Shown here: piece after piece, positions 941 through 10,777 of the stretch
Layout: every line of letters begins with the position of its first letter
Position numbering within the stretch: the first letter of the stretch is position 1
Origin: a bacterium
GTDB taxonomy: Bacteria > UBP6 > UBA1177
Reading direction: 5' to 3'
Length of the DNA stretch: 64,000 bases
Assembly: GCA_016290135.1 (NCBI GenBank)
Contig: JAEESW010000006.1
Location: 27,670 to 91,669, forward strand
The notes under the pieces: model-generated
Seen by the model: only the letters and a program-made list of their open reading frames with translations
Told to the model about the DNA's origin: nothing
The model's database searches: none
Translations under genes and position numbers: made by a program

Positions 941-1999
941 TTATTCGCCCCAGACAAAGATGTCGTCGAACCAAACTTTTTTCTGTTTTTTGTCCGCCAC
1001 AAGACAGAGATTCGGAATAGAGATCGAACCAAAATCGTGGACCTGATTATTGACTTTAAGTTCGTCATCGACCCATACGGAAACAGTTTTATTCAGCTGA
1101 TCGAGTTTCAAACGGATCTTATACCACACATTCGCCTCGTATGAAGGAGCGATCTCGTAAGCATACCATTCAGGGATCTGATAGCGTATCTTTCCGTCGG
1201 CGAACTCGACTTTCATGTCATAGTTGCCCCAATTCGAACCGCTTGCCTCATTTTCAAAAGTGCAGAGCGAAAATGAAACATCGTCACCTTCAGTATTCAT
1301 CTTCATTTCGACATTGATCACATCCGGCACTTCAGGCAGAGCTGTCGTCATGATCGCCGAAAGGTTGCCGTTCTTGCTGCCAAGAAGGTTCATGCTGTTT
1401 TCAGCAGAGAAATAGCGCTCGGAAGTAACGATCTGATACTGAGGTCCTGCGCCTCGGTATTTCAGCGTCCAGCCTGAACTTTTAGGCGGAAAAGAGCCGG
1501 CCGTGTAAGAATCAAAATTCTCCTTGAAGAAAGCGTTTCTGCACACTTTCGCACCGCCGCAGGCATCAGCCGTAACACAAAGATCGGCTTCGCAGCAGTC
1601 GGCATCGGTCTCACACGATGCCCTGAAACAGTTCGATCCGCTGAAAAGCTCGCCGCATACAGGCTTCTCTTCATCCGGCGTCTCATCGACATCCTCGTCA
1701 GGGAAAGGATCTTTATCGTTTTCGGCCGGATCATCTTCATTCGGTCCGTTATCGGCCGGTTCCGTGTTTTCCTCATCAGTTGTCACGACCTGGTCATTAT
1801 CATTGACTGCCGGTCCTCCGGCTTCATCCGGAGTTTCTTCCGCCGGTCCGACAGGATCTGAATCCTGAACCTCAGGATCATCGTTTTCAGTCACGCCCTC
1901 ATCCGGAGTCTCTTCAGCAACCGGAGTAAGCCGTTTCGCAGCATCACCGCTGCATGAAACAAGAATGAAAGCCAAAAATAAAAAGAAGAATTTCCGCAT
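941..1999 (-). CDS. secreted lipoprotein with an acidic low-complexity region, a Cys-rich module and a C-terminal beta-sandwich-like domain
   Basis: The probable start is MRKFFFLFLAFILVSCSG, which has an LVSC lipobox. An acidic Asp/Glu/Pro-rich linker follows, then CGELFSGSNCFRASCETDADCCEADLC, then a ~200-aa domain. This gene has no WRLP/RCVR tail. Confidence 0.6.
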   Translation of the reverse strand: MRKFFFLFLAFILVSCSGDAAKRLTPVAEETPDEGVTENDDPEVQDSDPVGPAEETPDEAGGPAVNDNDQVVTTDEENTEPADNGPNEDDPAENDKDPFPDEDVDETPDEEKPVCGELFSGSNCFRASCETDADCCEADLCVTADACGGAKVCRNAFFKENFDSYTAGSFPPKSSGWTLKYRGAGPQYQIVTSERYFSAENSMNLLGSKNGNLSAIMTTALPEVPDVINVEMKMNTEGDDVSFSLCTFENEASGSNWGNYDMKVEFADGKIRYQIPEWYAYEIAPSYEANVWYKIRLKLDQLNKTVSVWVDDELKVNNQVHDFGSISIPNLCLVADKKQKKVWFDDIFVWGE

Positions 2000-2099: not shown

Positions 2100-2831
2100 T
2101 TATTGATTTTTCGGATCGAAAGCGAACGGGAAAGTGACTGTTGCGGAACCGCCTGCCGGTTTCGGGAAACGCAATCTGCCGATGACGCCTTTCACACACT
2201 TTGCGACTTCGGCATCTTTGAGAGAATCATCGACTACTTCGGTGTTTGAGACCCTTCCCTGCTCGTTTATCGTGATCTTTACAGACATTTTGCCTTTAAG
2301 CATCGGATTCGATGTCAGAGCCTTGTCGTAGCATCTTTTTATTGCGGCTTTGCTGACGTTTATAACTTTCGTGACCCCTGCGGAATCTATGTTTGCGCCG
2401 TCCGGCTCTCTCAGAGACGGTGTCGGCCTTTCAGGAACACCCTTTTCTTCCCTTTCTATCGGTTTCTTTTCCGCGGGTGCAGCCGCCGGAGCCGGTTTTT
2501 CAGCAGGTTTTTCCGTCTTTTCAGCTTTCTCTGCTTTTTCAGGAGCGGGTCTTGCCTCCTGTTTCTCTTTTTTTGCAGGTGCAGGAGCGGGAGCGGGTTC
2601 AGCTTTCTGCTCGGGAGCAGCCTCTTCCTTTACTGCTTCAGCAGGAGCGGGCTCTTCGGCTTTGGGAGCCTCTTCAACTGCCGGTGCAGGCTCAGCAACA
2701 GGTGCCGGTGCCGGCTGAGACGTTTCAGGTAACGGCTCTACATTTTCACTGCCACGGCTTCTGCTGCATTTGTAGGCTGCAAGCAGGGCGACTATCACAA
2801 CGATAATGACAACAACAAGAAGTTTTTTCAT
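2100..2831 (-). CDS. TonB-like protein: N-terminal TM anchor, Pro/Ala/Glu/Lys-rich linker, C-terminal TonB_C / AgmX-PglI C-terminal-like domain
   Basis: MKKLLVVVIIVVIVALLAAY is a TM anchor. About 120 aa of (A/E/K)P-rich repeats follow. The C-terminus reads AIKRCYDKAL...GKMSVKITINEQGRVSN...CVKGVIGRLRFPKPAGGSATVTFPFAF, which matches the CY..L / G.v.v.f.I...G.V / C / FP.P.GG / FPF.F pattern I recall for NF033768. Confidence 0.6.
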   Translation of the reverse strand: MKKLLVVVIIVVIVALLAAYKCSRSRGSENVEPLPETSQPAPAPVAEPAPAVEEAPKAEEPAPAEAVKEEAAPEQKAEPAPAPAPAKKEKQEARPAPEKAEKAEKTEKPAEKPAPAAAPAEKKPIEREEKGVPERPTPSLREPDGANIDSAGVTKVINVSKAAIKRCYDKALTSNPMLKGKMSVKITINEQGRVSNTEVVDDSLKDAEVAKCVKGVIGRLRFPKPAGGSATVTFPFAFDPKNQ

Positions 2832-2939
2832 TTTTCACCTCGTTAATAAAAAGACCTTAATCCAAAAAACGCGTTATTTTAGGAATATCTTGTGAAATTG
2901 CCAGAAAAATCGTCAGCTCCGGCAGAAAAGCGGTCGTTT

Positions 2940-3908
2940 TCACCTTCTCAGGTGGAGCAGTATCGAATGGGCCAAAGAGACCTTCTTACCGTGCTTCGGA
3001 GCAGGGAATTTCATCTCTCTCACTCCTGCCGCGATACAGTTTTCGACCGTAAGATTGCCGAAAGTGCTCATATAGACACCGGAATACAAGACCTTGCCTT
3101 CAGGAGAGACAATATATTCGACAGTCACCCTTCCGTGTTTCATATCGCTGTCTTCCTGCATTCCTTTGTAAATGCAGAAAGAAAAATCCTTCATCTTATC
3201 GTCGAACTGTTTGTTTATATCCTTTTCGCTGATAGGAAAGTTATCCTCTTTGTCAGCTTTCTTCTCTTTTTCATCCTTTTTTTCATCCTTATCAGCTTCC
3301 TTTTCATCTTCTTCAAAATAATACCAGTCCGACCTCGCAATGCATCTCGCGTAGAGTTTTGATTCCTTGCTGACACTTCCGATCATTCCGCTGTAAAAAA
3401 CGGCGCCCCAAGCCTTGTTATCATCATCGGAAAGCGATGATCCCGACCACAGTCCGATGTAATCCGCATCGCCGAACATGCTGTAATGACCTCTGTTTTT
3501 CGGCTTTCTTTCGCAAGTACACGAATTTTTAGGAGCCGAGCAGTTCCCGGCAAGGCATCTGCCCTCATCGCTCACGCGGCAGCTTCCGCCAGGCTCGGTC
3601 GCCGGACAGTTGCGCATCAGTTCCCTAAGCTCGTCGACATTCGGCAGACGCCATGTTTCGCCCCAGAAATCGAGTTTTCTGCAGTAATCCTGAGCTTCTT
3701 TCCATGTCATTTTAGTTAAAGAGCGTGCCGAGAAAATAAAGTTCCCGTCACTCTCGACGATCTCGATCCCTCCTTCCGCCGCGGAATAAGCCTGTGCCGC
3801 AGCTGCTTCCTCATCTTCGAGTTCGTTGTCCTTTTTATCCTCTGCAAAAAGGGCAACTATGCCGAAAACTGCGATAAAAAGAAACAAAGGCAAACTTTTT
3901 CTCATCAT
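2940..3908 (-). CDS. secreted protein fusing a Fib_succ_major-like domain to an AgmX/PglI-C (TonB_C-like) domain
   Basis: Signal peptide MMRKSLPLFLFIAVFGIVALFA. The first domain reads MTWKEAQDYCRKLDFWGETWRLPNVDELRELMRNC...LYARCIAR. A KEADKDEKKDEKEKK linker follows, then ...VTVEYIVSPEGKV...ENCIAAGVREMKFPAPKHG. The start ATG overlaps the murJ stop (ATGA). Confidence 0.7.
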   Translation of the reverse strand: MMRKSLPLFLFIAVFGIVALFAEDKKDNELEDEEAAAAQAYSAAEGGIEIVESDGNFIFSARSLTKMTWKEAQDYCRKLDFWGETWRLPNVDELRELMRNCPATEPGGSCRVSDEGRCLAGNCSAPKNSCTCERKPKNRGHYSMFGDADYIGLWSGSSLSDDDNKAWGAVFYSGMIGSVSKESKLYARCIARSDWYYFEEDEKEADKDEKKDEKEKKADKEDNFPISEKDINKQFDDKMKDFSFCIYKGMQEDSDMKHGRVTVEYIVSPEGKVLYSGVYMSTFGNLTVENCIAAGVREMKFPAPKHGKKVSLAHSILLHLRR

Positions 3909-5488
3909 ACACCTCTTTTTCTGAACAATCCTTTAACGACCTCAAACGTTTCATCTTTGACAACTGCCGAAATCCCTGCAAAAAACATCATAAAAACCAA
4001 TGCGAGCAGTGAAAAAGAACACATTTCACTTATTTTGCCGATTTTAAAAAGAGAGTCAAAAAAGTTATAGAACCTGTCTTTCAAGAAAATCAATGGACAA
4101 ACTGAAACCACTGAAATTATTGAAATTTTAACAAAATAGAGAGCTGTTTTCCCGAATTTCGCACTGTTTTTGAAGTATCTGAGCACTGCGGCAAAAAGGA
4201 TGACTGCTGCCGCAAGCGACGCAAGCGACGATGCAAGCGCGATGCCGCCTCCGGACAAGGTATCAACGAGAAAATATGCGGCGATGAAGTTCACCGCTAT
4301 CGAAACAAGTCCTGCGAAAACGGGAAGCGCCGTCCTTTCTAACGCATAGAAGAACGAGTTCAGGATCCTTGAAAGAGCAAGAAAAAAAAGTCCCGTGATC
4401 CTGAAATCAAGGGCTGAAGCTGTAAGAGCAACCGATTTGGAATCGAATTTGCCGAAACCGAAAAGAAGCTGAACCATCTCAGTCGAATTGACAAGCGTGA
4501 ACACAAGCGCAGGGATCGAGACGAATGCCACGAACTTCAAGGCTGAGTCAAGGTTTTCAGTAAGTTTTGAGAAATCCCTGCTTTTCGCGTTCTCAACAAG
4601 TTCAGGCAGGATCACTGTGCTCAGAGTCACGACAAAAACACCGATCACGAGTTCCTCGATGCGTGCCGAAAAGCGGAGGCTGCTGACCACACCTTCGCCA
4701 GCGCTGTTAGCCATGTTCGTAGTGAGAAGGACGTTCAGCTGGTATGCGCCCGTGCCGAAAAGCGCGGCTAATACCATCTTTCCCGATCTTGCGATATTCG
4801 GATCCGCAAACGCTTTTTTAAGGCTCACGAAAGAAAAACGGAAAAGCGTTTTCGCCATGAAAGGAAGCTGCATCGCAAGCTGCATGAAACCTCCTGCGAG
4901 AACGCCGACTGACAAAGCACGTGCCGGATTTTCAGTGAAAGGCGCAAGAAGAAAAGCAAGCGTTATGAATGAGATGTTGAAAACTATCGGAGAGGCTCCG
5001 CTCGGCCTGAAGATTCCGGAACTGTTGAGAACGCTCTGCGTAAGAGCCGCAAGCGAGATGAAAAAAATGTATGGAAACATGATCCTGGCAAGAAACGCCG
5101 CTTCGGCCGCCGAAGTCTCTTCAAGCGAAGGAGCAAGAAGCGCGGTTATGCCGCCTGAAAATAGGATCGAGATAGCCACAAAAACGAATGAAACGAGCGT
5201 CACAAGCGTAAAAAGCGCGCTTAGAAATTCGGCAGCCTCTCCCCTTTTGTTCTCACTCACGAGCCCTTTGAAGCGCGGAATGAAAGCCGATGAAATGACG
5301 CCGTCTGCAAAAAGCCGCCGCACGACATTGGGGATCGTGAAAGCGACCGCAAAAGCATCGGCAAGAACTCCGGTCCCCAGAAAAGCGGCCGTGACAGACT
5401 CCCTCACCAAGCCCAAAACACGCGAAATTACCGTAAGGACCGCCAAGTCCGAACTTTTTTTGAATATCGAAGGAGCTTTTTGAGTCAT
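3905..5488 (-). CDS. murJ: lipid II flippase MurJ (MviN)
   Basis: The ~527-aa polytopic protein contains LAVLTVISRVLGLVRESVTAAFLGTGVLADAFAVAFTIPNVVRRLFADGVISSAFIPRF, which is classic MurJ N-terminal sequence. The track ORF starts at a GTG at 5512. The ATG that gives MTQKAPSIFKK, at 5488, is the more likely start. Confidence 0.85.
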   Translation of the reverse strand: MTQKAPSIFKKSSDLAVLTVISRVLGLVRESVTAAFLGTGVLADAFAVAFTIPNVVRRLFADGVISSAFIPRFKGLVSENKRGEAAEFLSALFTLVTLVSFVFVAISILFSGGITALLAPSLEETSAAEAAFLARIMFPYIFFISLAALTQSVLNSSGIFRPSGASPIVFNISFITLAFLLAPFTENPARALSVGVLAGGFMQLAMQLPFMAKTLFRFSFVSLKKAFADPNIARSGKMVLAALFGTGAYQLNVLLTTNMANSAGEGVVSSLRFSARIEELVIGVFVVTLSTVILPELVENAKSRDFSKLTENLDSALKFVAFVSIPALVFTLVNSTEMVQLLFGFGKFDSKSVALTASALDFRITGLFFLALSRILNSFFYALERTALPVFAGLVSIAVNFIAAYFLVDTLSGGGIALASSLASLAAAVILFAAVLRYFKNSAKFGKTALYFVKISIISVVSVCPLIFLKDRFYNFFDSLFKIGKISEMCSFSLLALVFMMFFAGISAVVKDETFEVVKGLFRKRGV

Positions 5489-5508
5489 AAAGGATCGCCT
5501 CTGCACAT

Positions 5509-6450
5509 TCACTCTTCCACCTTCTTAAACACAAAAGGATAGTTCACGATAACTATTCCGCCCCCTTTAGGAGCAGGAAATTTGATTTTTTTGATTACTC
5601 CGGCAACGCAGTTTTCGACTTCGGCATTGCCCATCGTCGTTCTCTGCACTTTGGCAGAACTCACATCGCCGCTTGCCGAAATAACGAAGTTGATGACGAC
5701 TCTTCCGGCTAATTTCCTATCTTTCGCAAGTTCATTTTCATAACATTGTCTTATTTTACCGACACTTTTTCTGACATACGAATCGATCGTGCATCTGTTT
5801 AAAGCACCCATTATTACCGGAGTCTCATGGGAAACGGATTCTTCTTTTAAATCCACTTCCTTAACGCATCTCGCATAAAATTTTCCGCTTTTTTTGTTGC
5901 TGCCGACCATTGCGCTGTAATAAACGATGCCCCACGCACTGTCCGGATTGTCGGAAAGAGTTGATGAAGACCAGAGAGCGATATTGTCTTCATCGCAGTT
6001 GGCACTGTAAAAACTCCCTTTTGCGATCCTCTCGCAGCTGCACGAACCTTTCGGGTTTTTGCACTCGGAAGAAAGACAACCGTTTTTCTCGCTCACTCTG
6101 CACTCGCCGCCGGACTCGGTTTTCGAACATCCGATTATCCCTTTTCTCAATTCGTCGATATTCGGAAGATGCCAGCCGCCCGAACCTTTTTCCGACAGAT
6201 TTTTGCAGTAGTTCACAGCATCGTTCCAAGTCATCTTTTCTGGAGAACGGTCGGAAAACAAAACAGTCTTTCTACTCCCACTTGCAGTACTTTCTTCATT
6301 TTCAAGTTCATTGTCTTGTTCCGGTGCCGATCCATTCTGCGTCCGGTTTGTATCTTCCGACGCGTTTTTCTCAGTTTTCCCGTCATCAGCAAAGAGTAGT
6401 ACCGTCAAAAAAGCTGAAATCAAAAGGACTAAAAACAAAAGTTTTTTCAT
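5509..6450 (-). CDS. secreted protein fusing a Fib_succ_major domain to an AgmX/PglI-C (TonB_C-like) domain
   Basis: The probable start is MKKLLFLVLLISAFLTVLLFADDG. It contains ...MTWNDAVNYCKNLSEKGSGGWHLPNIDELRK...KFYARCVKE. The C-terminus reads IRQCYENELAKDRKLAGRVVINFVISASGDVSSAKV...ENCVAGVIKKIKFPAPKGGGIVIVNYPFVF. The TGA stop overlaps the GTG start of the murJ ORF. Confidence 0.7.
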   Translation of the reverse strand: MKKLLFLVLLISAFLTVLLFADDGKTEKNASEDTNRTQNGSAPEQDNELENEESTASGSRKTVLFSDRSPEKMTWNDAVNYCKNLSEKGSGGWHLPNIDELRKGIIGCSKTESGGECRVSEKNGCLSSECKNPKGSCSCERIAKGSFYSANCDEDNIALWSSSTLSDNPDSAWGIVYYSAMVGSNKKSGKFYARCVKEVDLKEESVSHETPVIMGALNRCTIDSYVRKSVGKIRQCYENELAKDRKLAGRVVINFVISASGDVSSAKVQRTTMGNAEVENCVAGVIKKIKFPAPKGGGIVIVNYPFVFKKVEE

Positions 6451-6592
6451 GGTTTCACTCCGTAAGCGCAAAAACACGGAAAAAAATAGAGAAAATGAAA
6501 ACAGAAAGCAAGAAATCCATTGATAAGCCACAAGTCGGACAAAAAATGCAGACTCCGCAAAAATAATTCGAGTCGAAGTGTAAAAAGCACTG

Positions 6593-6620
6593 TTGACATC
6601 TCAATTTTATGGGATAATAT
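6593..6620 (+). promoter_or_regulatory. sigma-70-like promoter TTGACA-N16-TAATAT upstream of the AAA ATPase gene
   Basis: The motifs were read from the sequence. They are followed by a direct repeat TGCGGATTATCC / TGCGGATAATGG and then GGAGGTG-N5-ATG. Confidence 0.35.
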
Positions 6621-6670
6621 AAGACGTGACTGCGGATTATCCCAAATTTTGCGGATAATGGAGGTGAAAA

Positions 6671-7912
6671 ATGGCTTTTTTTGAACGGCATGCGGAAAAG
6701 ACTTTAACACGGCTCGAATCTTCATTTCCGGCAGTTCTCGTAACAGGTGCGAGACAGACGGGAAAAACCACACTTTTAAAGAAAATGACCGATGCGAAAT
6801 CGGTAAGAAGCACCACTTTTGACGACATTGCGGAAGAGCGGTCGGCAAAAACTGATCCGAAAACCTTTCTCGAACTCCATCCGAGTCCGTATATGTTTGA
6901 TGAAGTCCAGTATGTACCCGATTTTTTCCGTTATCTTAAAATCGAAATCGACAAAAACCGTAAAAACGGCATGTTTTATCTCACCGGAAGCCAGCAGTTC
7001 AAACTGATGGAAGCAGCAACCGAAAGCCTTTCTGGAAGGATCGGGATCGTCCAGCTTTATCCGCTTTCGGCGAGAGAGATCCGCCGCGACGGTTTTTCCG
7101 ACAACTTTATTCCGACAAAAGAGTATATTCTGGAACGGAACAACGCCCTTTCAAACCGCACTTTTTCTACCCAGAAAATCTGGGAGCGCATCTATACCGG
7201 CGGTTATCCCGAAGTCGTAAAAGGAAATGTTGATCCGAAAGATTTTTACGCATCATACCTTAAAACCTACATAGAGCGCGACATCAGAAGCCTGACTCAG
7301 GTCGCCGACGAAATGCAGTTTTTGCAGTTCATAACGATAGCGGCATCGAGAACGGGCCAGCTTCTGAACTACACTGACATGGCACAGGAATGCGGGATCA
7401 GCGAGGGAACTGCAAAAAAATGGATGTCGCTGCTTACGACTTCTGGAATCGTCTATCTCCTGAAGCCATATTCGACAAAAGTTGAAAAGCGGGTCGTAAA
7501 AACTCCGAAACTTTACTTCATGGATACCGGACTTGCCGCGTATCTCACCAAGTGGACAAGCCCGCTCGTCATGCAGACAGGTGCGATGGCGGGAGCTTTT
7601 TTTGAAACCTACATTGTGAGTGAAATAATCAAATCGTTTGCCAACAACGGCGTTGAAGCTCCGATTTATTTTTACCGCGACAAAGACAAAATCGAAATCG
7701 ACCTCATCATCGAACAGAACAGCATAATTTATCCCGTTGAAATCAAAAAGACCGCAACGCCTAATTCCGACGACGCGAAAAACTTTTTTATAACAGGCCG
7801 CCTGAAAGATGTTCAGATCGGTCAGTCTACAGTCATCTGCTGCACGGACAAAGTCGTTTCCGTCAAAAAAGGTGAAGCATCAGCTTTAGCAATTCCTGCT
7901 GATTTTGTGTGA
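6671..7912 (+). CDS. AAA-family ATPase (DUF4143 / COG1373-type ATP-binding protein)
   Basis: The ORF is 413 aa with a Walker A motif VLVTGARQTGKTTLLKKM. It shows the typical AAA_14 + DUF4143 layout (...YFYRDKDKIEIDLIIE...). It is the only plus-strand gene inside the minus-strand lipoprotein array. Confidence 0.8.
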   Translation: MAFFERHAEKTLTRLESSFPAVLVTGARQTGKTTLLKKMTDAKSVRSTTFDDIAEERSAKTDPKTFLELHPSPYMFDEVQYVPDFFRYLKIEIDKNRKNGMFYLTGSQQFKLMEAATESLSGRIGIVQLYPLSAREIRRDGFSDNFIPTKEYILERNNALSNRTFSTQKIWERIYTGGYPEVVKGNVDPKDFYASYLKTYIERDIRSLTQVADEMQFLQFITIAASRTGQLLNYTDMAQECGISEGTAKKWMSLLTTSGIVYLLKPYSTKVEKRVVKTPKLYFMDTGLAAYLTKWTSPLVMQTGAMAGAFFETYIVSEIIKSFANNGVEAPIYFYRDKDKIEIDLIIEQNSIIYPVEIKKTATPNSDDAKNFFITGRLKDVQIGQSTVICCTDKVVSVKKGEASALAIPADFV

Positions 7913-7960
7913 GTTATCCGGCAGTTAAGCAAATTTTGTAGTTTTGTTAAAGTATCGAAT
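7913..7960. repeat. degenerate copy (A) of the intergenic repeat element (GTTATCCGGCAGTTAAGCAAATTTTGTAGTTTTGTT...)
   Basis: It shares the GTTATCCGGCAGTTAA head and the ATTTTGT(A/G)(G/A)TTTTGT core with copies B and C. It lies immediately 3' of the AAA ATPase gene. Confidence 0.4.
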
Positions 7961-8077
7961 CCAATTGTTTTTCAATATCCCGACCATAGTACATAACGCG
8001 GATAATCGTCACGATTTTTCGTCTTTTTATCGGATTTTTTCGAAAAAATTTAGGAAGTGCAAATATCGATTAACACA

Positions 8078-9322
8078 TCACTCTTCCTTGTTCTTGAATG
8101 TGAAGGGATGGTTCACGAAAACTATGCCACCACCTCTCGGAGCAGGGAATTTGATTTTTTTTATTTGTTCAGCAACACAGTTTTCGACTTCGGCATTGCC
8201 AAGCGTAGTCCTCAGCACTTTAGAAGAACTGACGTCGCCGCTTGCAGAAATAATGAAGTTAACGAGGACTCTTCCTGCGAGTTTCGGATCTTTCGCAAGT
8301 TCTTTTTCATAACATTTATTTATTTCATCTTCGCTTTTTCTGATATACGAATCGATCGTGCAATTGTCTAAAGCAGCCATTATTACCGCAGTCTCCGGTG
8401 GAACGGATTCTTTTTTTAAATCCACTTCCGTCACGCATCTCGCATAAAATTTTCCGCTTTTTTTGTTGCTTCCGACCATCGCGCTGTAAAAAACGACGCC
8501 CCACGCGCTGTCCGGGTCGTCGGAAAGAGTTGATGACGACCAAAGAGAGACATTGTGTTCATCGCAGTTGGCACTGTAAAAACTCCCATTTGAGACCCTC
8601 TCGCAGCTGCACGAACCTTTCGGGTTTTTGCAATCCGATGAAAGACATCCGTTTTTCTCACAGACTCTGCACTCGCCGCCGGACTCGGTTTTTGAGCATC
8701 CGATTATCCCTTTTCTCAATACATCGATATTCGGAAGATGCCAATCGGTCAAACCTTTTTCCGACAGATTTTCGCAGTAGTTCACAGCATCGTTCCAAGT
8801 CATTTTTTCTGGAGAACGGTCGGACCAAAGCAGGACTGTTTTATTATTATCCGAAACTTTTTCCTCAACCACCGCGTTTCTGAATACAAAAGAATAATTG
8901 TAAACAACAGTACTTGCGTCTTTCGAAACAGGAAATTTGATTTTGCCTACCTGATCTGCGACACACTTTTCGACACCAGAATCATTCATCGTTGTTGACA
9001 CGACCTTTGATTCACTGACATCTCCCGTTGACTGAATAACGAAGTCGAGAACGATTATTCCGGCGATTTCAGGATGTTTACGAACTCCGTTTTCATAGCA
9101 AAATCTGAGCTTTGGCAGAATTTTCCTGACATGCTCCTCTATTACTTTTTTATCAAGGGCTCCATTTACCGTAGCTGTATGCGGGTTTTCTGCAGTTGTC
9201 AATCCTCTTGCTACAATTTTGCCGCTGGTTTCTGCTTTTTCTTCCTTCTTTTCACTCTCTGCCGAAGCACAGCCGTAAAGAAACGCCGCAGTTATGAAAA
9301 GTAAAAACAGAATTTTTTTCAT
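8078..9322 (-). CDS. lipoprotein with an AgmX/PglI-C-like domain, a Fib_succ_major domain and a second AgmX/PglI-C-like domain
   Basis: MKKILFLLFITAAFLYGCAS is a lipobox. The N-terminal domain reads LRFCYENGVRKHPEIAGIIVLDFVIQSTGDVS...KCVADQVGKIKFPVSK...YNYSFVF. The middle reads MTWNDAVNYCENLSEKGLTDWHLPNIDVLRK...FYARCVTE. The C-terminus reads CYEKELAKDPKLAGRVLVNF...FPAPRGGGIVFVNHPFTF. The last ~260 aa are about 85% identical to 5509..6450. Confidence 0.7.
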   Translation of the reverse strand: MKKILFLLFITAAFLYGCASAESEKKEEKAETSGKIVARGLTTAENPHTATVNGALDKKVIEEHVRKILPKLRFCYENGVRKHPEIAGIIVLDFVIQSTGDVSESKVVSTTMNDSGVEKCVADQVGKIKFPVSKDASTVVYNYSFVFRNAVVEEKVSDNNKTVLLWSDRSPEKMTWNDAVNYCENLSEKGLTDWHLPNIDVLRKGIIGCSKTESGGECRVCEKNGCLSSDCKNPKGSCSCERVSNGSFYSANCDEHNVSLWSSSTLSDDPDSAWGVVFYSAMVGSNKKSGKFYARCVTEVDLKKESVPPETAVIMAALDNCTIDSYIRKSEDEINKCYEKELAKDPKLAGRVLVNFIISASGDVSSSKVLRTTLGNAEVENCVAEQIKKIKFPAPRGGGIVFVNHPFTFKNKEE

Positions 9323-9332
9323 TGGTTCACCC

Positions 9333-10058
9333 CTATTCCAAATTCAGCCTGTGTTTCAGTATAAAGTATGTCGCAACGCCGTAAATTGCGGAAAAAGCCA
9401 ACAAAATTAACGACATAGCACGAGCGTCGTGATATTTAACTATTTTGACGACACTGTCAAATACATCTGCCGAAATCCTGAAAGTCGCGCTCAGAATCAT
9501 AACGACCGTAACAACCATCGCGATCTTTCTATGTTTTTTTGCAAGATGCCCCACCGCATTCACAAGGTATGCAAACAAAACGACAGTTATGAAAATTGAT
9601 GCGAGCAGCAGCCAGTTCTCAAACTCATAGTCATATTTTTTTGCTATACCGGCAATAATCATAGACAAAAATCCACACACCAGACAGACAGGGATCCATG
9701 CAACAACCGATAAAATCCGTCCCCAGAGATGTTCACCGACCGTAACCGGAAGCATAAGGTTAAGGTAAGCTTCATCTCCCAGAAGACCTGTTTTGAAACG
9801 CCGGATAAAAACAGCTGCGGAAACAACTCCGGAAGTAACCAGAATCACAGAGTAAAGTATCATAAAAATCCCGGATATGCTGTCAAAAGCACTGTCCAGT
9901 CCCTCAAATCCGTCTAAAAAAAACATCCGGCAGATCAATGCTACAAAAACAGTGGTGACATAGATCGGCAGAAGGATACGCGCCGTATTTTTCATTTCAT
10001 ATTTGAATACCTTCAAAATCCAGGGGAAAGGATTCCTGACCGACTTTGTTTTTTCCAT
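9333..10058 (-). CDS. polytopic membrane protein, probably the permease partner of the adjacent ABC ATPase
   Basis: The ORF is 241 aa with about 6 hydrophobic segments. It sits 11 nt downstream of the ABC ATP-binding gene. Confidence 0.55.
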   Translation of the reverse strand: MEKTKSVRNPFPWILKVFKYEMKNTARILLPIYVTTVFVALICRMFFLDGFEGLDSAFDSISGIFMILYSVILVTSGVVSAAVFIRRFKTGLLGDEAYLNLMLPVTVGEHLWGRILSVVAWIPVCLVCGFLSMIIAGIAKKYDYEFENWLLLASIFITVVLFAYLVNAVGHLAKKHRKIAMVVTVVMILSATFRISADVFDSVVKIVKYHDARAMSLILLAFSAIYGVATYFILKHRLNLE

Positions 10059-10069
10059 AGAAATCCTCC

Positions 10070-10777
10070 TTAACTCTGCCTTAACTTGAAATCTTCGCGG
10101 AAAAGCGCGTCTATCGACATTCCCGTTTCTGTGCGTATTTTGTCAGTTTCACCCTGACGGATCAGCCGGCCATCATGAAGAAACAGCACATAATTCAAAA
10201 ACGGTTCGATATCGCTGATAAGATGAGTCGAAATAATTACGGTTGCATCTTTGTCACGGTTGGCAATTATCGTTTCAAGAATGTAATCCCGCGCCGCCGG
10301 ATCAACGCCGCCGATCGGCTCGTCAAGCATGTAAAGCTTAACATCGCGGCTCATCGTAAGAATCAGCTGCACCTTTTCCTTGTTTCCTTTTGAAAGGCTT
10401 TTGAGCTTGCTATCAAGCTCTATATTCAGATCTTTCAGCATTTCATGCGCCCTGTCAGTGCGGAAATCATGATAGAAATCAGACATCATTTTTACAAGGT
10501 CGCCGACCGTCATCCAATCGTTCAGATAAACGCGGTCAGGCTGATAGGCAGACGCTTCCTTAGATTCGACTCCGGGATCAAAACCGCATACCGTGATATA
10601 ACCTTCTGTCGGCTGCAAAAGACCTGCGGCAAGTTTGAGAAGCGTTGTCTTTCCGCTGCCGTTAGGACCGAGCAGACCGACGATCGTACCTTTCGGAACA
10701 GAGAGACTGATCCCGTCCAAAGCGGTTTTTGAGAGATACTTTTTTGTCAGATCGAAACACTCTAAAACCGAATCCAT
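10070..10777 (-). CDS. ABC transporter ATP-binding protein
   Basis: Walker A is GPNGSGKTTLLKL. The ABC signature is LSKGNKEKVQL. Walker B is LYMLDEPIGGVD. The H-loop is STHL. Confidence 0.85.
   Translation of the reverse strand: MDSVLECFDLTKKYLSKTALDGISLSVPKGTIVGLLGPNGSGKTTLLKLAAGLLQPTEGYITVCGFDPGVESKEASAYQPDRVYLNDWMTVGDLVKMMSDFYHDFRTDRAHEMLKDLNIELDSKLKSLSKGNKEKVQLILTMSRDVKLYMLDEPIGGVDPAARDYILETIIANRDKDATVIISTHLISDIEPFLNYVLFLHDGRLIRQGETDKIRTETGMSIDALFREDFKLRQS

Follow-up and report, generated by a model that had tools for sequence, protein, structure and literature searches.

The lipid II flippase gene murJ lies among genes for lectin-like exported proteins with a TonB-like domain in rumen UBP6 bacteria

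Why is the gene for the lipid II flippase MurJ packed among genes for exported proteins that join a lectin-like domain to a TonB-like tail? The arrangement occurs in a 64-kb window, the whole stretch of DNA that we analysed, in which six open reading frames between positions 941 and 9322 all lie on the minus strand; those listed in a preliminary description are at the coordinates given there. They comprise a lipoprotein gene (941), murJ and four genes that we name, with their products, by their lowest coordinate (2100, 2940, 5509 and 8078; Table 1). The packing of murJ with such genes is genuine and conserved in the lineage. That lineage had been taken for Fibrobacter; the nearest genomes are instead rumen metagenome-assembled genomes of the GTDB phylum UBP6, genus UBA1177.

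Domain composition of the cluster proteins

The proteins 2100, 2940, 5509 and 8078 had been suggested to carry the AgmX/PglI C-terminal domain (CTD), and all four exceeded the curated 40-bit cutoff of the corresponding NCBIfam model, NF033768. Our own hidden Markov model restricted the CTD to these four genes within the window and recovered the two copies claimed for 8078, at residues ~56–150 and ~318–414. TonB models gave a mixed result. The 8078 protein (26.6 and 36.0 bits) and the 5509 protein (24.6 and 33.7 bits) reached the cutoffs of both Pfam TonB_C (PF03544, 24.6 bits) and tonB_Cterm (TIGR01352, 27.1 bits), whereas 2100 (17.7 and 26.6 bits) and 2940 (no match and 14.9 bits) fell below. 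The 2940 copy is the most divergent: it has CIYKG instead of CY(E/D), lacks GG and ends in ...AHSILLHLRR instead of YPF.F, and it thus fits the consensus described for the domain only in part, while still passing NF033768.

In 2940, 5509 and 8078 the CTD is combined with a paralogous domain, as described, although not the one proposed. Neither Fib_succ_major model (PF09603, TIGR02145) matched at E≤0.1 in a scan of six window proteins with Lcl_C, and we rejected the Fibrobacter and Fib_succ_major assignments together. The domain is Lcl_C/DUF1566 (PF07603), of C-type-lectin-like fold, and scores in the three fusion proteins (46.9, 51.8 and 57.6 bits) exceed its 34.9-bit cutoff. The major paralogous domain of F. 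succinogenes is likewise a highly expanded secreted family in a rumen bacterium, but it differs in sequence family and in host. The Lcl_C family has undergone a huge expansion here: the window has at least 13 copies, most of them within a variable island; none of the at least 10 other window Lcl_C genes bears the CTD tail, and all that do bear it lie within 5.5 kb of murJ. Diversity-generating retroelements have been discussed in the literature as targeting DUF1566, and we rejected this for the window: there is no template/variable repeat pair, the repeats in 1–35 kb are ordinary paralogue similarity of at most 82%, and no reverse transcriptase was noticed among the names in the window gene list.

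Searching the PDB by sequence alone gave marginal TonB matches (E ~0.4–0.5), and a fold search was needed. In the predicted structure of the 5509 protein, two methods agreed that the CTD has the alpha/beta fold of the TonB and TolA CTDs, which bears out the proposed TonB_C-like fold, on this protein rather than on 2940. The Lcl_C part of the model, of moderate confidence only (pLDDT 53–86), resembles the Lcl CTD, C-type-lectin-like domains and a Bdellovibrio fibre tip, with a match to 8q4e. The predicted structure of the 941 lipoprotein matched the Emp46p carbohydrate-recognition domain, galectins and a legume lectin, a ConA-like fold; its family is limited to the UBP6/UBA1177 lineage (49 clusters at ≥55% identity, some with PF06439). 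Ten cysteines are invariant, eight in Lcl_C and two in the CTD. Together with the signal peptides and lipoboxes they fit an oxidising extracytoplasmic location, and the cluster proteins are probably periplasmic.

A literature search found no paper describing the Lcl_C–CTD fusion or its packing with murJ, consistent with the suggestion that it was new; such proteins have nevertheless already been named automatically at NCBI and JGI, as "TonB family protein" and "AgmX/PglI C-terminal domain-containing protein".

Table 1 Features of the murJ cluster and its surroundings, in window positions.
Feature	Position	Strand	Remarks
Lipoprotein gene (941)	941..1999	-	Lipobox LVSC; ~90-aa acidic disordered linker, small Cys-rich domain, predicted ConA-like lectin/glucanase beta-sandwich; fourth conserved cluster member
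2100 gene	2100..2831	-	Bitopic TonB-like anchor; NF033768 97.3 bits
2100, CTD	2118-2387	-
2100, linker	2388-2747	-
2100, transmembrane helix	2772-2822	-
2940 gene	2940..3908	-	322 aa, Sec-exported, signal peptide; Lcl_C 46.9 bits, NF033768 46.9 bits
2940, divergent CTD	2976-3230	-	Preceded by Asp/Glu/Lys-rich linker
2940, Lcl_C	3339-3716	-
murJ, lipid II flippase	3905..5512	-	TIGR01695 equivalog 360.8 bits (cutoff 235.55); Pfam MurJ 328
5509 gene	5509..6450	-	313 aa, Sec-exported, signal peptide; directly upstream of murJ; NF033768 101.8 bits
5509, CTD	5524-5796	-
5509, Lcl_C/DUF1566	5860-6246	-
PDC-S01/DUF4143 ATPase gene	6671-7912	+	Mobile, candidate defence; separates 8078 from the other genes
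8078 gene	8078..9322	-	414-aa lipoprotein, lipobox LYGC; NF033768 175.5 bits in two stretches, Lcl_C 57.6 bits
8078, CTD	8093-8368	-
8078, Lcl_C	8432-8848	-
8078, CTD	8873-9157	-
Polytopic membrane protein	9333-10058	-	241 aa; 11 nt upstream of 8078
ABC ATPase	10070-10777	-	ABC_tran 82.9 bits

Gene junctions and conservation around murJ

The preliminary description had murJ overlapping both of its neighbours. On the 3' side this is so: the murJ TGA overlaps the ATG of 2940 in an ATGA at 3905-3908. On the 5' side the TGA of 5509 does overlap the GTG (5512) with which the murJ reading frame begins (GTGA, found identically upstream of murJ in L004 and L007, where L001–L008 are the murJ loci of eight related species). 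However, the murJ orthologues in L003 and L008 start at the equivalent of ATG 5488, so this is more likely to be the conserved start, and it would leave a 20-nt gap to 5509 instead of an overlap. Orthologues of 2940 follow murJ at +4 (L001), +10 (L005 and L006) or +34 nt (L004), and the intergenic gaps of the cluster contain no terminator-like site on the minus strand. Overlaps or short gaps, in a neighbourhood kept in relatives, uphold the tight coupling of murJ to the adjoining genes, and we tentatively regard murJ as co-transcribed with its neighbours and translationally coupled to them at least on its 3' side.

The 8078 gene is not part of this unit as far as its surroundings show. This paralogue of 5509 follows the ABC ATPase and membrane-protein genes at 11 nt and is cut off from murJ by the plus-strand ATPase gene; it is thus predicted to be transcribed separately from murJ in this genome. 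The ABC ATPase/membrane-protein pair also precedes the fusion P0016, another paralogue, in L085 (89.8% DNA identity), and is a second conserved context of the fusion family.

The order murJ, lectin–CTD fusion, membrane-anchored CTD protein and ConA-like lipoprotein is repeated in most related species, so that the expected synteny exists, in UBP6 genomes rather than in Fibrobacter. Genes with the CTD lie within a few kilobases of murJ in seven of the eight species and fusions in six, and the linkage is kept despite a rearranged order in L002 and L007. Orthologues of 2100 are conserved after murJ in L001 and L003–L006 and, after an insertion, in L002; those of the 941 lipoprotein are syntenic in L001–L007, and in L007, L092 and L094 it is the 8078 orthologue that immediately precedes murJ. 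L003 has the anchor and the lipoprotein without the fusion, and L008, at 67% MurJ identity, has none of the three; MurJ can therefore function without the fusion. When fusion clusters were sampled irrespective of murJ, four of seven adjoined it or lay near it; P0016 and the fusions P0031 and P0172, from other lineages, are not beside murJ, and we ruled out that the gene after P0031 is a truncated murJ. The linkage is limited to genomes with 67–86% MurJ identity. Beyond the lineage, broadened domain models run on 72 murJ loci of Desulfobacterota and further phyla found neither the CTD nor Lcl_C in any of them, and we discarded the idea of a wider linkage.

The 2100 anchor and known systems

The 2100 protein has the TonB-like architecture ascribed to it: three N-terminal residues, a hydrophobic helix of ~17 residues, a ~120-residue linker rich in Pro (26), Ala (28), Glu (26) and Lys (14), and the CTD. 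Among orthologues the helix and the CTD are conserved and the linker is variable. In the energy transducers TonB and TolA, the transmembrane helix has a Ser/His face (SHLS-type motif) that couples to ExbB or TolQ. The helices of 2100 and five orthologues contain neither His nor Ser of such a motif (only L, V, I, A, T and F), and no MotA/ExbB/TolQ or ExbD/TolR gene was identified among those annotated in the 64-kb window or, for L001–L008, up to 10 kb from murJ. The predicted CTD fold is common to TonB, TolA and the window proteins. Unlike the TonB and TolA CTDs, the window domain has two invariant cysteines and in two proteins falls below the TonB cutoffs; nor are there exbBD or tolQR genes nearby, and soluble fusions cannot transduce the proton-motive force (PMF). 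Because of this last point, and because the anchor has only three cytoplasmic residues and no Ser/His motif, the cluster is best read as something other than a canonical TonB import system.

Closer in family are GltG (PglI) and GltJ (AgmX) of the Agl–Glt gliding machinery of Myxococcus xanthus, which share the CTD with all four window proteins and, with 2100, the layout of transmembrane helix, long low-complexity periplasmic linker and CTD. The equivalog models NF033760 and NF033761 scored 42.5–193.9 bits, over the last ~100 profile positions only and far below their full-length cutoffs of 650 and 450 bits. The window proteins lack the cytoplasmic FHA or ZnR/GYF domains, have no glt or agl neighbours, and in three of four cases join the CTD to a lectin-like domain behind a signal peptide or lipobox, a build for which no Glt example has been reported. 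The GltG and GltJ CTDs have been modelled as docking onto GltD and GltF (PMC11761067), and GltG binds the AglR motor (PMC3169522).

The fusion Lcl_C domain shares its fold family with the C-terminal domain (PF07603) of Legionella pneumophila Lcl. Unlike Lcl and the Bdellovibrio fibre tip Bd2740, the window proteins have no collagen-like or fibre stalk; their lectin-like domain precedes a TonB-CTD-like tail and is encoded beside murJ. For association of a lipid II flippase with an extracytoplasmic module of carbohydrate-binding type, the likeness is to M. tuberculosis MviN (MurJ), which has its own extracytoplasmic carbohydrate-binding domain and a fused pseudokinase (PMC12599244). MviN is a covalent fusion regulated via FhaA and PknB and its carbohydrate-binding fold differs from the lectin-like folds here, whereas the window proteins are separate, coupled and free of kinase-type domains; its domain nevertheless sets a precedent for MurJ having an accessory of lectin-like type.

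Explanations for the linkage

We favour, at a probability of roughly 0.45, a lineage-specific envelope cluster of rumen UBP6/UBA1177 bacteria that encodes a co-expressed periplasmic docking scaffold coupled to murJ. It would combine modules of glycan-binding type (Lcl_C/DUF1566 and the ConA-like sandwich) with TonB-CTD-like domains of the GltG/GltJ type. Beta-strand augmentation joins TonB to the TonB box, TolA to TolB and GltG to GltD. By analogy, the CTDs may be protein–protein docking modules of this kind, through which the soluble lectin-like proteins and the inner-membrane anchor, with its long linker, would be joined to partners that they share. The resulting periplasm-spanning scaffold would be produced in fixed proportion with the flippase and placed on an envelope glycan, peptidoglycan or another polymer, near the site of lipid II export. 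The sequences and models show the structure of the genes, the identity of the domains, the fold of 5509, the overlapping junctions and the synteny across the lineage; from these we infer the periplasmic location, the docking, the binding of glycan and any functional connection with MurJ.

The same genes could instead be an expanded secreted lectin or adhesin family whose TonB-like tail anchors it to the outer membrane or cell wall, with no role in lipid II flipping. We consider such an incidental neighbourhood unlikely, if a serious contender: with so many Lcl_C copies in the window some adjacency to murJ could be fortuitous, fusions exist away from murJ, L003 and L008 lack them, and 67–86% MurJ identity is a range in which gene order can persist through inertia. 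Against this, the linkage outlasts rearrangement (L002, L007/L092), insertion of a mobile gene and swaps of the paralogue upstream of murJ (LA or ALA); 4-nt overlaps or gaps of at most 34 nt are maintained on both sides; and every tailed Lcl_C gene of the window is close to murJ, the other copies there being tail-less. An energised system, with 2100 as a PMF transducer driven from another locus that encodes ExbBD, TolQR or AglRQS, and with the soluble fusions as adaptors or competitors sharing its outer-membrane target, would suit the architecture of 2100, its weak resemblance over the full length to TonB models of E. coli type (NF008081, E=2.7e-5) and the motor binding of its relative GltG. 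It is improbable given the helices devoid of His and Ser in all six orthologues, the absence of stator genes among those annotated and the sub-threshold TonB scores of 2100 itself.

Least probable of all is that GltG-like CTD copies dock lectin-like domains onto TPR scaffolds of the GltD/E/C type as accessories of a Glt-like core complex. This idea draws on P0067, a 469-aa protein with an FHA-like N terminus, a transmembrane helix, a Gly-rich linker and a CTD 70–74% identical to those of 5509 and 8078. Its gene cluster mirrors gltD-E-F-G-H in product sizes (1210-aa TPR, 388-aa TPR, 86, 469 and 217) and includes a neighbour named CglE by PGAP, and proteins combining TPR and CTD were also among the matches. 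However, we identified neither TPR nor Glt-like genes in the window, and the largest contigs that carry members of the 469-aa protein family, of 2.07 and 2.83 Mb, are absent among the fusion-cluster contigs listed. The tetranucleotide correlation of the P0067 cluster with the window is 0.89, compared with ~0.97 for true relatives and 0.83–0.87 for unrelated DNA of equal GC content; this value and the accession blocks indicate that the cluster probably comes from another lineage, and we set aside its placement in the window's genome.

In a bolder reading, the long-linker anchor and the soluble lectin-like proteins, which share a CTD of GltG type, might form a hitherto unknown trans-envelope organiser of cell-wall synthesis around MurJ that physically ties lipid II export to the glycan layer or the outer membrane, a version we hold to be a long shot. 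Such an organiser would be a non-transport and possibly non-energised use of the TonB CTD in a candidate phylum without a cultured member.

Most TonB-CTD-like domains with a known role are the working end of PMF-driven transducers (TonB, TolA and GltG); fused to signal-peptide or lipoprotein lectin-like forms, the domain would have to act as a passive docking module. That such genes are tightly coupled to the flippase gene, and stay so across species, suggests that cell-wall assembly in this uncultured rumen phylum has an accessory layer. If the proteins have no physical connection with MurJ or peptidoglycan, they would simply be adhesins particular to the lineage, unusual in their anchor. If they do have one, they would be a new class of MurJ partners, for which the fused carbohydrate-binding domain of mycobacterial MviN is the only comparable case we found, and would offer a handle on what the widespread AgmX/PglI domain does in bacteria that do not glide.

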